From IMG/VR virus record IMGVR_UViG_2534681988_000034: DNA of 8,554 bases; one strand, 5' to 3'. The notes under the pieces were generated by a model. It worked only from the letters and a program-made list of their open reading frames with translations, did not search any database and was not told the DNA's origin. Shown here piece after piece: positions 1 to 6,728 of this stretch. Source of the stretch: a virus (Duplodnaviria; Heunggongvirae; Uroviricota; Caudoviricetes). The first letter of the stretch is position 1. Every line of letters starts with the position of its first letter. The translations under genes were made by a program, and so were the position numbers.

Positions 1-1164
1 TTACGCCTTCTTTATATCCTCCATAATTCCAGAGTGGGACATATTTGGGACATTATCACCAAAAATGTCGTCTATTTTCCTCGCATGCTCTGTCAAATGA
101 TTAGGCGCAAGGTGAGCATACCTACGAACCATTTCTATGGACTCCCATCCGCCCATTTCCTGAAGCACTGATAATGGGACGCCTGACTGAATCAGCCAGC
201 TTGCCCAGGTGTGTCTGAGGTCATGGAAACGGAAATCTTCAATTCCTGCACGACGACAAGCTGATAGCCATGATGTCTTGCTGTCGATGCGCATCTTCCT
301 GACCGCAGGCGTTGATGTTCCATCTGCTCGCTTAGCCGCCTTGGTATGTACAAACACCCATTTGTGATGCTTGCCTATTTGATCACGCAACACTTTACAG
401 GCGGTATCGTTCAGCGCCACACCAATGGCGCGGTTTGATTTGCTCTCTTCTGGATTCACCCAGGCAACTCGTCGCTGCATGTCGATTTGTTGCCATTCCA
501 GATTTATGATGTTCGACTTTCTCAGACCAGTTGCCAGCGCAAACTTGACGACAGATTTCAGTGGTTCGGGGCACTCATCAATAAGGCGTTTTGCTTCCTC
601 CTTTTCCAGCCATCTGACTCGCTTGTTTCTGACCGCTGGTATCTTGATGACAGGCGCTTTTTCCAGCCACTTCCAGTCGCGTTCTGCAGCACGGAGAATG
701 GCCTTTATCATGGCAAGATGCTTTGCCTTTGTCTGAGTTGATACTGGCTTTGGTTCATAAACAGGCGGTTCTTTACCTTTCCTGATGGCGGCCTGAACTT
801 TCTGTTTCCATATTTCTTTCGTCTTTCTGTTATGCATTCTGCTTACAGCAGAGTAAATCTTTGCCTCCGAGATATCTTTAAGCCTTATACCCTCAAAATG
901 TTCAAGCCAGAACTCAATCCGGCTTTTATCTGAATCGAGAGATTTTTTATCAGCTTTTTCCTCAAGCCATCTTAGGCAGGCCTCTTCAAAAGTGACATCA
1001 GGTAAATCCCCTAGCTTTTCTACTCGCCAGAGTTCTGCTTTTCGCTTGTCGTGCAACTCCTGAGCTTGCCGCTTGTCCTTTGTGCCAAGAGATTCCTTAA
1101 TTCGTTTCCCGCCCGGGAGCGAATACGAGGCATACCATATTTCATTTCTGCGGAAGAGTGACAT
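1..1164 (-). CDS. int: Phage tyrosine integrase (lambdoid prophage Int)
   Basis: 387-aa ORF, complete in window (stop TAA as rc of 1-3; ATG as rc of 1162-1164 preceded by GAGGAAA). C-terminal tyrosine-recombinase signature (HDLRHTWAS ... VRRYAHL). N-terminus MSLFRR..YAS..LP.GKR matches lambdoid prophage integrases of the DLP12/Rac type from memory. Confidence 0.93.
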
Positions 1165-1391
1165 TTTCTTTCCTCTGTTATGCCATCACCCGCGCTCACC
1201 TGGACAGTATGCAGCGGAGACTGAAGCGCCGCAATGCAGGCTTGCCGTGTTGTGAGGTAAGGAGATTTTGGCTTGGTTGGATCTTTACGTGTTGCCTGTA
1301 GGCGGCCTGTTCGTATCCAGTTGGTGGCGGTTGGTCTGGATATCTTAAGAAACTGACAGGCCTCATCGAGTGTGAGGCTGTATGATTCCAT
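1020..1391 (-). CDS. xis: Excisionase-like DNA-binding protein (Xis/AlpA-type HTH)
   Basis: ORF directly upstream of int on the same strand. Start taken at the internal ATG (rc of 1389-1391) preceded by GAGG. N-terminus [31 protein letters not shown] looks like an excisionase/AlpA helix-turn-helix. The 3' end overlaps int by about 145 nt, which is longer than usual, so the true C-terminus is uncertain. Confidence 0.6.
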
Positions 1392-1641
1392 GGTTACCTC
1401 TGCTTTTTGAACGCATGTCACGTAACTTCTTAATGTGTTCTGCCGTTTCGATCTCTTCTGCTATCCGATCTGCATCAGCTTTATTCACAGGTTCAAAGTC
1501 ATGATTAAAGCGGAACATGCTGGCGATACATGTTCTGCCTTTTCGGATGTAGTGAACTTTGTTGTGGGTAGAACGCAGGATTTTGCAGGGAGTGCCGTGG
1601 TGGTCGACGTACCAGGTGTTAGGAAAAATGATTCTGAACAT
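1363..1641 (-). CDS. Hypothetical small phage protein (92 aa)
   Basis: ORF with ATG (rc of 1639-1641) preceded by GAGGTG at good spacing, in the leftward operon between the TraR-like gene and xis. No family recognised from sequence alone. Confidence 0.5.
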   Translation of the reverse strand: MFRIIFPNTWYVDHHGTPCKILRSTHNKVHYIRKGRTCIASMFRFNHDFEPVNKADADRIAEEIETAEHIKKLRDMRSKSRGNHGIIQPHTR

Positions 1642-1688: not shown

Positions 1689-1907
1689 TCACAGTCCCCA
1701 TTGTTTGTTCTTAAGTTCGATCTCCTCCTGGCAACTTGCACAAGTCCGACAACCCTGAACAGCCAGGCGTCTTCGCTCATCTATCGGATCGCCACACTCA
1801 CAACAATGAGTTGCGGATACAGTCTGGTAGTTCTGACGACGCATTTTTATTGCTGTATTGCGCTGTAATTCTTCGATTTCTGATGCTGAATCAATGATGT
1901 CTGCCAT
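1689..1907 (-). CDS. TraR/DksA-family C4 zinc-finger protein
   Basis: 72-aa ORF with CxxC-(17)-CxxC cysteine pattern (CCECGDPIDERRRLAVQGCRTCASC), as in TraR/DksA C4-type zinc fingers found in conjugative plasmids and lambdoid phages. Confidence 0.65.
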   Translation of the reverse strand: MADIIDSASEIEELQRNTAIKMRRQNYQTVSATHCCECGDPIDERRRLAVQGCRTCASCQEEIELKNKQWGL

Positions 1908-1962: not shown

Positions 1963-1983
1963 AAAAAAGGAGCCTGTAGCTCC
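1963..1983 (-). terminator. Putative Rho-independent terminator (minus strand)
   Basis: Inverted repeat GGAGC(1969-1973)/GCTCC(1979-1983) with 5-nt loop. On the minus strand the hairpin is followed by a U6 tract (plus A-run 1963-1968). Lies about 20 nt downstream of the orf61-like stop. Confidence 0.45.
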
Positions 1984-2005: not shown

Positions 2006-2221
2006 TCACCGTTCCTTAAAGACGCCGTTTAACATGCCGATCGCCAGGCTTAAATGAGTCGGTGTGAATCCCATCAGCGTTACCGTTTCGCGGTGCTTCT
2101 TTAGTACGCTACGGCAAATGTCATCGACGTTTTTATCCGGAAAATGCTGTCTGGCTTTTTTGATTTCAGAATTAGCCTGACGGGCAATGCTGCGAAGGGC
2201 GTTTTCTTGCTGAGGTGTCAT
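2006..2221 (-). CDS. Small lambda orf61-like protein
   Basis: Minus-strand ORF; preferred start MTPQQENALRSIARQ.. (ATG as rc of 2219-2221, 71 aa). A longer 93-aa form from ATG at 2285-2287 is possible but has no RBS. Position (third small ORF downstream of exo) and recalled sequence match lambda orf61. Confidence 0.55.
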   Translation of the reverse strand: MTPQQENALRSIARQANSEIKKARQHFPDKNVDDICRSVLKKHRETVTLMGFTPTHLSLAIGMLNGVFKER

Positions 2222-2297
2222 TGAACAAGCCCCATGTCGGCAAGCATAAGCACACAGAATATGAAGCCCGCTGCCAGAAAAATGCATTCAGTGGTTG

Positions 2298-2489
2298 TCA
2301 TACCTGGTCTCTCTCATCTGCTTCTGCTTTCGCCACCATCATTTCCAGCTTTTGTGAAAGGGATGTGGCTAACGTATGAAATTCTTCGTCTGTTTCTACT
2401 GGTATTGGCACAAACCTGACTCCAATTTGAGCAAGGCTATGTGCCATCTCAATACTCGTTCTTAACTCAACAGGAGATGCTTTGTGCAT
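2298..2489 (-). CDS. Small lambda orf63-like protein
   Basis: 63-aa ORF with strong RBS GGGAGG 4 nt upstream of ATG (rc of 2487-2489). Sequence [23 protein letters not shown].. matches lambda orf63 from memory. Confidence 0.6.
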   Translation of the reverse strand: MHKASPVELRTSIEMAHSLAQIGVRFVPIPVETDEEFHTLATSLSQKLEMMVAKAEADERDQV

Positions 2490-2650
2490 ACCGCCTCCCG
2501 TTTATTATTTATCTTCTCAGCCAGCCGCTGTGCTTTCAGTGGATTTCTGATAACAGAAAGGCCGGGAAATACCCAGCCTCGCTTTGTAACGGAGTAGACG
2601 AAAGTGATCGCGCCTACCCGGATATTATCGTGAGGATGCGTCATCGCCAT
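2462..2650 (-). CDS. Small lambda orf60a-like protein
   Basis: 62-aa ORF starting 10 nt inside the 3' end of exo (ATG rc of 2648-2650, GGGGAG upstream) and overlapping the orf63-like start by 28 nt. Same arrangement and size as lambda orf60a. Confidence 0.4.
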
Positions 2651-3321
2651 TGCTCCCCAAATACAAAACCAATTTCAGCCAGTGCCTCGTCCATTTTTTC
2701 GATGAACTCCGGCACCATCTCGTCAAAACTCGCCATGTACTTTTCATTCCGCTCAATCACGACATAATGCAGGCCTTCACGCTTCATGCGCGGGTCATAG
2801 TTGGCAAAGTACCAGGCATCTTTTCGCGTCACCCACATGCTGTACTGCACCTGGGCCATGTAAGCCGATTTTATTGCCTCGAAACCACCGAGCCGGAATT
2901 TCATGAAATCCCGGGAGGTAAACGGGCATTTCAGTTCAAGGCCGTTGCCGTCACTGCATAAACCATCGGGAGAGCAGGCGGTGCGCATACTTTCGTCGCG
3001 ATAGATGATCGGGGATTCAGTAATATTCACGCCGGAAGTGAATTCAAACAGGGTTCTGGCGTCGTTCTCGTACTGTTTTCCCCAGGCCAGCGCCTTAGCA
3101 TTAACTTCCGGAGCCACACCGGTGCAAACCTCAGCCAGCAGGGTGTGGAAGTAGGACATTTTCATGTCAGGCCACTTCTTTCCTGAGCGGGGCTTTGCTA
3201 TCACGTTGTGAACTTCTGAAGCGGTGATGACGCCGAGCCGTAATTTGTGCCATGCATCATCCCCCTGTTCGACAGCTCTCACGTCGATCCCGGTACGCTG
3301 CAGGATAATGTCCGGTATCAT
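2641..3321 (-). CDS. exo: Lambda-type 5'-3' exonuclease (Red alpha)
   Basis: 226-aa ORF, near-identical from memory to lambda Exo (…[63 protein letters not shown]…). Start overlaps the bet stop (ATGA-type coupling) as in lambda. Confidence 0.95.
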
Positions 3322-4103
3322 GCTGCCACCTTCTGCTCAGTGGCTTTCTGTTTCAGGAATCCAAGAGCTTTCACTGCTTCGGCCTGTGTCAGTTCTGACG
3401 ATGCGCGAATGTCGCGGCGAAATATCTGGGAACAGAGCGGCAATAAGTCGTCATCCCATGTTTTATCCAGGGCGATCAGCAGAGTGTTAATCTCCTGCAT
3501 GGTTTCATCGTTAACCGGAGTGATGTCGCGTTCTGGCTGACGTTCTGCAGTGTATGCAGTATTTTCGACAATGCGCTCGGCTTCATCCTTGTCATAGATA
3601 CCAGCAAATCCGAAGGCCAGACGGGCACACTGAATCATGGCTTTATGCCGTAACATCCGTTTGGGATGCGACTGCCACGGCCCCGTGATTTCTCTGCCTT
3701 CGCGGGTTTTGAATGGTTCGCGGCGGCATTCATCCATCCATTCGGTAACGCAGATCGGATGATTACGGTCCTTGCGGTAAATCCGGCATGTACAGGATTC
3801 ATTGTCCTGCTCAAAGTCCATGCCATCAAACTGCTGGTTTTCATTGATGATGCGGGACCAGCCATCAACGCCCACCACCGGAACAATGCCGTTCTGCTTA
3901 TCAGGGAAGGCGTAAATTTCTTTCGTCCACGGATTAAGGCCGTACTGGTTGGCGACGATCAACAATGCGATGAACTGCGCATCGCTGGCATCACCTTTAA
4001 ATGCCGTCTGGCGAAGAGTGGTGATCAGTTCCTGTGGGTCGACAGAATCCATGCCGACACGTTCAGCCAGCTTCCCTGCCAGCGTTGCGAGTGCTGTACT
4101 CAT
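3318..4103 (-). CDS. bet: Single-strand annealing recombinase Bet (Red beta)
   Basis: 261-aa ORF, near-identical from memory to lambda Bet ([66 protein letters not shown]…). Immediately upstream of exo. Confidence 0.95.
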
Positions 4104-4108
4104 CCGTT

Positions 4109-4405
4109 TTATACCTCTGAATCAATATCAACCTGGTGGTGAGCAATGGTTTCAACCATGTACCGGATGTGTTCTGCCATGCGCTCCTGAAACTCAACAT
4201 CGTCATCAAACGCACGGGTAATGGCTTTTTTGCTGGCCCCGTGGCGTTGCAAATGATCGATGCATAGCGATTCAAACAGGTGCTGGGGCAGGCCTTTTTC
4301 CATGTCGTCTGCCAGTTCTGCCTCTTTCTCTTCACGGGCGATCTGCTGGTAGTGACGCGCCCAGCTCTGAGCCTCAAGACGATCCTGAATGTAATAAGCG
4401 TTCAT
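4109..4405 (-). CDS. gam: Gam, host RecBCD inhibitor (short form)
   Basis: 98-aa [63 protein letters not shown]… matches the 98-residue C-terminal (GamS) part of lambda Gam. AGGAG RBS 7 nt upstream of ATG (rc of 4403-4405). Confidence 0.9.
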
Positions 4406-4480: not shown

Positions 4481-4687
4481 TTAGTGATTCAGAGCGTTGC
4501 CGCGTCCGTCGAGAAAAACTTCCACGAGCAAGTCACGGGTATAAGTGCGCTCAATGCCGCGATGCAGATAAAGTCGTCCGCGTAAATTAGCTGATGCAGT
4601 CCAGGTACCATCTTTGCGTTTGACCAGCATTCCTGGCATGACCGCACCGCGATTAACGGTCTGCGTTCCGTAATGTTGATGAACCAT
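4481..4687 (-). CDS. Small pL-operon protein in the kil position (68 aa; 96 aa if started at 4771)
   Basis: ORF directly upstream of gam on the minus strand. Internal ATG (rc of 4685-4687) has a strong AGGAG RBS 5 nt upstream; the longer form from 4771 has only a poorly spaced GAGG. Basic, Arg/Lys-rich small protein; function inferred from position only. Confidence 0.5.
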   Translation of the reverse strand: MVHQHYGTQTVNRGAVMPGMLVKRKDGTWTASANLRGRLYLHRGIERTYTRDLLVEVFLDGRGNALNH

Positions 4688-4964
4688 AAAAACTCCTGCC
4701 CGTAAGCTGGGCTGCTGAACATATAAAGACTTCTGCGCGTATTCAGGCGGTGGATGGCCGCCGGTTGTCATAACTAAGCCGCCTCGTTGAAGCGACTAAG
4801 GTATGAAATGTTGAGTTGATTTCAGCTGGTCACACCGACGTTCACGCGTCCGTTTCATCCCTCGCACTCCCCGAAGCCTGCTGAAATTCAAGCTGCGGAT
4901 CTAAGCGGTCATCGCAACGGTGAATCAGGTGATTGCCGTATCGTTGTGTTGTTGCGATGAACTC

Positions 4965-4993
4965 ATTTAAAACTATAGTTGTTTTATCGTCAA
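4965..4993 (-). promoter_or_regulatory. Putative early leftward promoter pL (-35 TTGACG, 17-bp spacer, -10 TTAAAT)
   Basis: Minus-strand reading: TTGACG (rc of 4988-4993), 17 nt, TTAAAT (rc of 4965-4970); predicted start near 4957. The block is near-identical to the pR block upstream of cro (TTGACT-AAAAACAACCATAGTT-TTAATC). Confidence 0.5.
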
Positions 4994-5040
4994 CAACAAA
5001 AGTTGTTTTGTTGGTTGTTTTAGATATAACTGGTTGTATT
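4971..5040. promoter_or_regulatory. Putative OL operator cluster (repeated GTTGTT/AACAAC half-sites)
   Basis: Perfect 16-bp palindrome AACAACAAAAGTTGTT (4992-5007), inverted repeat GTTGTT-8-AACAAC (4978-4997), palindrome AACTATAGTT (4971-4980), and further GGTTGTTTT / GGTTGTATT copies (5013-5040). The same half-site TGGTTGTT/AACAACCA occurs in the cI-cro intergenic region. Confidence 0.45.
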
Positions 5041-5163: not shown

Positions 5164-5237
5164 AGATGATTGGTTAAGAGCGAGGGTAATGGGGAATGAA
5201 AAATCGCTTTACCTAATGCAAGGGTGCGAGCATTTTC

Positions 5238-6038: not shown

Positions 6039-6728
6039 TTATCCGTGTTTTCTGTACGTCTGCGGCATGCTCCCAATAACCTTACCGAATATGAATACCC
6101 GGTTCATCTCGTCTTTCTCGATAGGGTCCCACGGTGAGTAGCTCTTGTTATCAGAGATAACCAGCAGTTTATCCTTCATCATTTGCAGGCGCTTTACATG
6201 GGCGGTGTCGTCGTACAGAAATGCATAGATACCATCACCGTCGAAAGATTTAACCGTGATATCAACGAACAGCAGATCACCTGGTTCGATCGTTCCTGAC
6301 ATGCTGTCACCACGCACGTTAATGATGCGGATATTTTCTGCCTTCCTACCATCGAACATGTGACGAGCATCGTCAAACGAGTACTCAACCGAGCGTAGAA
6401 CTTCTACAAACTCACGGTTGATGACTCCCGGCCCAGCACTGACTTCTATATCAAGAACGTCAATCTTGAAGTATTTGGAATGGCTGACAGTTGATTGTAT
6501 TGGTTGCACTGTACTGTCTGACATATTTCCAACGCCAGAAGATAACCATTCTGCGCGCACACCCAAAGCGTTCGCGATCTCCACGATTTTAGTTGTTTGA
6601 TTAGCTTTCCCTGTTTCGATTTTCTGAATAGCAGCCTGGCTAACCCCGACCAAATCCCCAAGCGCCTTTTGTGTAAGGCCTCGCGCTAATCTGGCTTCTT
6701 TAAGTCTTTCTGAGAGTGTTGTTTTCAT
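6039..6728 (-). CDS. cI: CI-type prophage repressor (N-terminal XRE-family HTH + C-terminal S24/LexA-like autopeptidase)
   Basis: Start chosen at MKTTLSERLKEARLARGLTQKALGDLVGVSQAAIQKIETGK (ATG rc of 6726-6728), a typical HTH_3 N-terminus; the 22 codons upstream cover the operator region. C-terminal domain has an Ala-Gly cleavage site (VSAGPG), catalytic Ser in GDSM and Lys in VKRL, as in LexA / lambda cI. Divergent from cro. Confidence 0.85.
   Translation of the reverse strand: MKTTLSERLKEARLARGLTQKALGDLVGVSQAAIQKIETGKANQTTKIVEIANALGVRAEWLSSGVGNMSDSTVQPIQSTVSHSKYFKIDVLDIEVSAGPGVINREFVEVLRSVEYSFDDARHMFDGRKAENIRIINVRGDSMSGTIEPGDLLFVDITVKSFDGDGIYAFLYDDTAHVKRLQMMKDKLLVISDNKSYSPWDPIEKDEMNRVFIFGKVIGSMPQTYRKHG

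Follow-up and report, generated by a model that had tools for sequence, protein, structure and literature searches.

To our knowledge, antitermination of phage transcription by RNA alone is known essentially from the put family, with phage HK022 as the structural paradigm. The putL and putR sites of HK022 and HK639 act in cis, are independent of protein and bind the zinc-binding domain of the β′ subunit of RNA polymerase; in this mechanism, a nascent RNA that has folded attaches to the elongating polymerase close to the RNA exit channel and suppresses pausing as well as termination, both intrinsic and through Rho (PMC9378689). Here we analysed the leader of the early left transcript, 3′ of the promoter pL, in an 8,554-nucleotide (nt) stretch of viral DNA (IMG/VR record IMGVR_UViG_2534681988_000034; hereafter the window). 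The window matches, at 100% identity over all 8554 bases, a lambda-like prophage that is inserted at the tRNA-Arg gene argU of E. coli O26:H11 str. 11368. The leader contains a 96-nt element that we tentatively regard as a cis-acting antiterminator RNA, put-like in action and unrelated to put in sequence. A structured RNA in this leader had been suggested in a first-pass annotation of the window as one way of doing without the antitermination protein N, and the element is the best candidate for such an RNA. It is located on the minus strand, starts about 45 nt past the position at which we place the pL start, and is composed of the following parts.

4914-4819, minus strand: 96-nt structured RNA element (match to covariance model R2, 117 bits)
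4907-4905 pairing with 4865-4863, minus strand: stem-loop I of the element, enclosing hairpin 4899-4870 with loop AAUUUCAG
4859-4857 pairing with 4830-4828, minus strand: stem-loop II of the element, enclosing hairpin 4853-4834
4826-4819, minus strand: 3′ tail of the element, GCUGAAAU

No annotated feature covers the element in the genome records inspected, and Rfam scans of the whole window (E<=1) and of the leader alone (E<=10) returned only chance matches of the microRNA or CRISPR type. The known prophage small RNAs AgvB/AsxR, Pas and svsR were considered as its identity and rejected, as they belong to different loci. We found no prior description in Rfam or in the literature searched, although King et al. 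2011, on put-like RNAs, may mention it. The element is present in three lineages with unrelated flanks, namely the window family, a group of 15 viral contigs (L112/L154 type) and Scandinavium hiltneri (L135), which are covered by alignment A3, and in a fourth, metagenomic variant (L232). When genome, metagenome and viral collections were scanned with exact patterns, L135, L232 and the L112/L154 group were the only additions, and a search for distant homologues with model R2 over 0.9 Mb of lambdoid loci returned the known family only.

Four blocks of the element are invariant across the lineages (AUGACCGCUUAGA, UUGAAUUUCAGCAGG, GGGGAGUGCGAGG and GUGUGACCAGCUG), and the arms of hairpin 1 read AGCUUG/CAGGCU in the window family, CACUUG/CAGGUG in L112 and GACUUG/CAGGUU in L135. 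Compensatory changes occur at the pairs 19-42, 21-40, 22-39 and 66-77 of alignment A3, the last of which varies between A-U and G-C from lineage to lineage, and a G.G mismatch at 64-79 becomes G-C in L112 and U.G in L232. In the element alignment, 93% of the cells are paired, compared with 27-43% when the partners are slid, and 18 cells are changed on both sides, compared with 5.4 ± 1.7 in shuffles that were not corrected for kinship. The same two-stem-loop architecture was obtained when the three lineages were folded separately. A pseudoknot between loop and tail is possible in this model, with the loop of hairpin 1 being complementary to the tail (AUUUCAG with CUGAAAU), a pairing for which the supporting changes are all wobbles. 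The leader as a whole folds no better than shuffled sequence (z-score -0.73), which indicates that only parts of it are structured.

We examined whether the element could itself be a put site. As put is not in Rfam, we built a covariance model (R1) from nine put sequences (HK022 putL and putR, HK639, PDP110P2, UPF_BP1, phiEt88, CobraSix, S9-5 and PdC23), with which true put sites score 54-97 bits (HK022 putL 96.8, HK639 putL 92.8 and HK022 putR 54.2 bits). R1 had no match in the leader at 4689-4958 even at E<=10 with the filters off, and none in 68 element-bearing loci. HK022-type put is excluded by this model; the first-pass annotation had named a put-like RNA in this leader as one possibility. 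The element resembles put of HK022 and HK639 in being located immediately 3′ of pL in an N-less lambdoid phage, in being predicted to consist of two irregular stem-loops of about 70-100 nt and in having no partner protein gene. Unlike put, it has no sequence or structure homology detectable by the covariance model, does not match the put consensus (stem I GAACGGC...GUCGG; stem II GGCGGG-YUCAGGA-GARCGGCAAU) and has conserved motifs of its own (AUGACCGCUUAGA, loop AAUUUCAG, GGGGAGUGCGAGG and GUGUGACCAGCUGAAA). It is also single, with none on the pR side, whereas HK022 has both putL and putR; in the stretch of HK639 examined, only one putL-like site is annotated, just as the element is without a pR copy. 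If the element were a very distant relative within the HK022 put family, this would account for the shared slot, the two stem-loops, the similar size class (96 versus about 74 nt) and the short shared motifs, AACGG...CGUCGG and, earlier in the leader, ACGGCAAU. However, these motifs are short and in the wrong order, AAACGG is not invariant (AAGCGG in 37 copies), and R1 matches none of these sequences, which makes common descent with put extremely unlikely.

The element and putL occupy an identical slot in homologous leaders, behind the same promoter type. The L112 leader matches the HK639 and L024 leaders on either side of this slot, and the putL stems found in those phages, annotated in HK639 as a 'putL-like antiterminator RNA' spanning 126 nt, are replaced in L112 by the element (alignment A4). 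In loci L024 and L027, putL is located directly between pL and module 2, the conserved 3′ part of the leader described below, which is the arrangement of the element in the window. Both RNAs are encoded on the same strand upstream of module 2, at distances from less than 100 nt to 1-2 kb. The Salmonella phage UPF_BP1 (L007 150-280; P22-like) has the pL/operator type of window 4960-5000 followed by a genuine putL, which indicates that immunity region and leader cassette reassort independently across genera. Put and the element are mutually exclusive: put was found in 22 of the 80 module-2 loci without the element and in none of the 75 with it (Fisher p = 1e-7). A strong intrinsic terminator (GC hairpin and U6) stands between the element and kil in the L112 and L219 types, with no N-like open reading frame (ORF) or shared protein gene in that interval, so that some antiterminator is needed there. 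The slot swap, the shared promoter type, the mutual exclusion and the terminators without N together suggest that the element supplies putL function in cis.

In lambda, the corresponding position between pL and the tL1 region is taken by the nutL-N operon, whose presumed purpose, reading through the early-left terminators, would be the same. The locus analysed here differs from lambda in having no N-family protein and no boxA/boxB in the leader. PHROG and Pfam scans gave no match to the N/Nun family for any small ORF of the window, and no N gene is annotated elsewhere in the prophage, where the late protein QuuD is the only antiterminator listed. The leader at 4689-4958 contains no CGCTCTTA within one mismatch and no GCTCTTTAACAA within two, and a nutL site, that is boxA followed by a boxB hairpin, was not found in it. 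The absence of an N-like gene downstream of pL, as originally proposed, is borne out by the scans and the prophage annotation; neither an N homologue in the annotation of the rest of the prophage nor a nutL in the leader was found. Antitermination of the pL leader through boxA, also put forward at first pass, found no support within these mismatch limits. One arginine-rich ORF does exist in the leader.

4858-4796, minus strand: chance 20-residue ORF (MKRTRERR...; 31 residues from TTG) with the Arg-rich stretch MKRTRERRCDQLKSTQHFIP

Its ATG is GTG in most relatives with window-type copies, the types L112, L154 and L135 read GTG-TAA, and L071/L106 have a 5-nt insertion. We rejected it as a mini-N since neither start nor frame is conserved and it has no PHROG or Pfam match, and we judge it from its sequence to be an accident of a CG-rich hairpin and not a gene. 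In stating that no ORF of the window has an arginine-rich N/Nun-type motif, the first-pass annotation passed over this ORF. A sorting of the module-2 loci by N, put or element was not retained, since pL is often more than 3 kb from module 2 and an Arg-rich heuristic gave only one convincing N-like ORF.

The element could alternatively be a nut-like site that recruits a factor in trans, such as an unrecognised phage protein unrelated to N, an N protein supplied by a second prophage in the same cell or Nus factors of the host. The sequence CGCUUAGA just before hairpin 1 superficially resembles a weak boxA, hairpin 2 has GNRA-like loops (GUGA; GGAGA in L112), and a perfect boxA on the pR side makes it probable that Nus factors are used there. 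Against this, there is no boxA within two mismatches in the leader and no N/Nun-like ORF, and what lies 3′ of the element changes entirely from one lineage to the next: kil itself, a gene for an HNH endonuclease, a Cys-rich 65-residue ORF or non-coding sequence of about 500 nt. The element is therefore not accompanied by any partner protein. Moreover, the isolated phages with the window leader have E. coli C or K-12 as recorded hosts, neither of which is known to supply a lambdoid N protein. We consider a trans-acting partner quite unlikely. The stretch of about 500 nt that directly follows the element in L135 (7025-7550), L154 and L232 is GC-rich and apparently non-coding, with no long ORF and no Rfam match.

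A further possibility is that the leader is an inert scar, left by deletion of nutL, N and tL1A in a defective prophage. The O26 copy has insertion sequence (IS) insertions and a stop codon in its late genes, and module 2 normally follows N or other genes and a terminator. This explanation is difficult to reconcile with the presence of the leader in 2198 of 5426 complete E. coli genomes, each with a single copy of the element, with its joining to at least five immunity types and with the recurrence of the element, including compensatory changes, in other leaders with unrelated flanks. The leader is also found in phages that were isolated independently. We regard a scar as very unlikely; of the N-less derivative considered in the first-pass annotation, the lack of N stands, and a crippling deletion is unlikely.

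If the element is an antiterminator, its targets would be the terminators of the left operon, two of which were found in the window.

4456-4439, minus strand: weak terminator-like hairpin with U6 in the kil-gam gap (free energy dG -8.6 kcal/mol, z -1.3)
1985-1967, minus strand: intrinsic terminator 5′ of the TraR-like/xis/int genes, with an 8-bp stem and UUUUUUAUU (U6)

The second had been marked at 1963..1983 and is real, with a dG of -10.2 kcal/mol and a z-score of -3.4. In the reading that we favour, the element would emerge from the polymerase, fold, bind the transcribing enzyme and remain attached to it. The modified polymerase would then resist Rho on the long untranslated leader as well as the intrinsic terminators at 4456-4439 and 1985-1967, and the left-operon genes, from kil, gam, bet and exo to xis and int, could be expressed without N. 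Module 2 of the window lacks the preceding terminator and upstream genes of other phages, and its mini-ORF is fused in frame to kil. The transcription start, folding in vivo, polymerase binding and antitermination activity are inferred here, the mechanism by analogy with put.

Several observations weigh against this reading. The window family has no tL1A-type terminator, so the need for antitermination rests on one good and one weak terminator and possibly on Rho. Within the family, conservation of the element does not exceed that of synonymous sites (nucleotide diversity pi 0.037, compared with 0.038-0.058 in kil/gam), although the family is about 97% identical throughout and within-family conservation is therefore uninformative on selection. 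The minimum free energy (MFE) z-scores of the element in the three lineages are not significant (+0.4, -1.5 and -1.1). With only three to four independent lineages, the covariation amounts to few events, to be read against kinship-uncorrected shuffles. No second copy of the element was found near pR or elsewhere in the window or in the 18.9-kb O26 locus. The swap at the same position demonstrates an interchangeable location and is no proof of common function, and because L112 retains the 3′ ~60 nt of the annotated putL-like site of HK639, activity in L112 could partly reside there.

The absence of a GC-hairpin/U-run terminator before module 2, the presence of only one good (1985-1967) and one weak intrinsic terminator downstream, the nearly neutral conservation and the weak MFE z-scores would also fit an operon with no dedicated antitermination. 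Without N, nutL and tL1A, pL would simply read constitutively into kil-gam-bet-exo once the repressor is gone, the later terminators being leaky or serving to limit int/xis, and the structured element would serve something else, for example 5′ stabilisation, the control of translation or processing, or release from the leader as a small RNA or decoy. In Klebsiella phage Mulock, the annotation between the repressor gene and kil comprises no more than two very small hypothetical ORFs, which suggests that compact N-less left operons may not be rare. This account leaves unexplained the precise replacement of putL in an HK639-type leader with strong terminators and no N, the strict mutual exclusion with put and the compensatory changes across lineages with unrelated flanks. 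We consider it somewhat unlikely, although it is the main alternative and may hold for the window family, and retain the put-analogous antiterminator as our working reading, with a probability that we would place a little below even.

The 5′ end of the leader was located from the promoter and from the comparison of relatives.

4965-5035, minus strand: oL/pL, with -35 TTGACG (4993-4988), a 17-nt spacer and -10 TTAAAT (4970-4965)
4911-4958, minus strand: 5′-terminal stem-loop of the pL transcript, AUCGCAAC ... GUUGCGAU, read directly from the sequence

As in lambda, the promoter contains embedded operator half-sites (AACAAC/GTTGTT), and pL is nearly a copy of the pR/oR segment 6770-6810 (GTTGTTGAC[G/T]A(T)AAAACAAC[T/C]ATAGTTTTAA). 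Relatives have at least five promoter/operator types, and their homology to the window starts at about 4958 or about 36 nt further in; from the -35 and -10 sequences, we place the transcription start near 4958, in agreement with the position of about 4957 first suggested. The joining of at least five promoter/operator types to one leader (L140, L167, L173 and L136) forms a sharp mosaic boundary. In L060/L140-type relatives, the loop and 5′ arm of the 5′-terminal stem-loop are swapped with most of the pairing retained; to judge from these sequences, the loop is replaceable.

Anatomically, and with high confidence, the leader consists of two separable modules, part 1 at 4958-4809 and part 2 (module 2) at about 4805-4700. 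Leader positions 1-156 are matched only by a close phage family (4A7, Lambda_4C10, Perceval, the PhiR phages including PhiR5_1, IdasGreatGrand and Turner; 95-99.6% identity), and positions 157-239 (4808-4726) are matched more widely. Module 2 corresponds to the 3′ 120 nt of the leader.

4769-4805, minus strand: hairpin A, consisting of CAUAC, a variable stem of about 12 bp, a 3-nt loop and UUAUG
4771-4746, minus strand: start of a mini-ORF (MTTGGHPPP) with hairpin B, GGCGG-CCAUCCA-CCGCC (4762-4746)
4481-4687, minus strand: kil, 68 residues, the first conserved gene of the pL operon (RefSeq WP_000233581.1, same coordinates)

Kil is an inhibitor of FtsZ. The gene product matches PHROG 294 'Kil protein' over residues 1-68 (E=3.2e-36), a good Shine-Dalgarno sequence AGGAG is present at 4697-4693, and diversity is 0.058 at third codon positions compared with 0.001-0.009 at positions 1 and 2. 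The leader had been described as about 270 nt free of ORFs. No conserved ORF exists between 4958 and 4688, which supports this description, but the ATG of kil is at 4687 and not at 4688, the nonconserved 20-residue Arg-rich ORF is present, and ATG 4771 is in frame with kil, so that translation may extend over the final 84 nt of the leader.

Module 2 matches phi80, HK225, HK639, CobraSix, S9-5 and several Klebsiella and Enterobacter phages. The identity of window 4808-4740 to phi80, HK225 and HK639 is 84-95%, and window 4808-4746 is 84-85% identical to the sequence from the end of phi80 tL1A, just 3′ of N. In phi80, module 2 starts at the end of tL1A, the intrinsic terminator after N, inside the mapped tL1 region (annotations from GenBank M11919 and JX871397). 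In HK225 and HK639, it is preceded by a GC-hairpin/U-run terminator and by early genes other than N, and in HK639 the stretch homologous to the mini-ORF start and hairpin B is under a feature annotated 'terminator'. Module 2 is widespread among lambdoid loci (L013, L004, L011 and L015-L134) and, in other phages, normally stands right after an intrinsic terminator. The window has the order hairpin A, mini-ORF and hairpin B in common with phi80 tL1, and differs from it in lacking the tL1A GC-hairpin/U-run and the upstream gene, in the sequence 3′ of hairpin B and in the fusion of the mini-ORF to kil. No intrinsic terminator was found 5′ of module 2 in the window, where the junction ...CAGCTGAAATCAACTCAACATTT|CATACC has no hairpin; most other module-2 variants are preceded by GCCGCCTAACCAGCGGCTTTTTT or GACCCGCTCCGGCGGGTTTTTT.

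Hairpins A and B together fold far better than shuffled sequences (z = -3.3). The stem of hairpin A, in the base of which AUG 4771 is sequestered, retains pairing in all of at least 10 sequence variants across more than 120 viral contigs. In a codon-degenerate scan, a 23-nt core was shared by more than 120 viral contigs, nearly all with one nucleotide sequence (ATGACAACCGGCGGCCATCCACCGCC), and the first 26 nt of the mini-ORF, containing hairpin B, are almost invariant at the nucleotide level. Downstream of the core, reading frames and lengths vary, and the window family continues in frame into kil. Possibilities for module 2 include a target of RNase III, an attenuator acting through Rho and a polyproline leader peptide, and a linker for recombination.

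On the pR side, the boxA-like element noted after cro is an exact boxA, but it belongs to the pR transcript.

7076-7088, plus strand: consensus boxA CGCTCTTTAACAA, 13 nt after the cro stop codon

It includes the exact rrn-type 12-mer GCTCTTTAACAA at 7077-7088 and is followed by no boxB hairpin. Antitermination through rrn-type boxA and Nus factors is also used in CRISPR arrays (PMC7665894). The locus resembles that system in having a perfect boxA in the pR transcript, and differs from it in that the boxA is outside the pL leader and travels with the immunity module rather than with the element: it is tied only to the immunity/cro module (41 of 102 element-bearing loci) and not to the pL leader. 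The boxA/Nus mechanism mainly counters Rho rather than intrinsic terminators. This boxA probably recruits Nus factors to the pR transcript, which suggests that pR transcription is protected independently of N.

The remaining features of the window were assigned from ORF translations, RefSeq annotation and PHROG and Pfam scans.

1-1164, minus strand: int
1326-1391, minus strand: xis-like helix-turn-helix ORF, a partial pseudogene according to RefSeq
1363-1641, minus strand: DUF4222 gene
1689-1907, minus strand: TraR/DksA-like gene
2006-2650, minus strand: small ORFs
2641-3321, minus strand: exo
3318-4103, minus strand: bet
4109-4405, minus strand: gam
5163-5140, minus strand: strong terminator just upstream of oL that ends the cI-moron (pRM) transcript, with a 9-bp stem and a U-run
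between terminator 5163-5140 and cI, minus strand: two moron genes
6039-6728, minus strand: cI
between cI and cro, plus strand: pR/oR
6833-7063, plus strand: cro
after cro, plus strand: YdaT/CII-like gene, then O

A long ORF at 1020-1421 shares about 145 nt with the beginning of int. The terminator at 5163-5140 has a dG of -15.1 kcal/mol and a z-score of -4.35, and an exact lambda-type boxA (CGCTCTTA) is found on the minus strand at 5175-5182, 11 nt upstream of its hairpin. This boxA is outside the block shared with phage 4A7 and may be due to chance (about 0.26 expected per window). In the O26 11368 copy (L231, NC_013361 626000-668000), the late region looks defective, with an S49 peptidase gene split by an IS66-family element, a C40 peptidase gene with an internal stop and an IS3 element nearby; the same copy has ompC-like, iss and lom-like morons.

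Taken further than the working reading, and held with slightly more reserve, the element may represent a new class of cis-acting, protein-independent processive antiterminator RNA that evolved, or was recruited, separately from put, forms a cassette interchangeable with putL and is carried by about 40% of complete E. coli genomes. If this is the case, polymerase-modifying RNAs arose more than once, and the element would offer another sequence with which to study the reprogramming of RNA polymerase by a nascent RNA. It would further account for the early-left expression of kil, gam/bet/exo and xis/int after induction in the common N-less prophages of E. coli, a group that includes those of O26 and other pathogenic strains. 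Even if its function turns out to be different, the element is a conserved, structured prophage part in about 2200 of the 5426 complete E. coli genomes.

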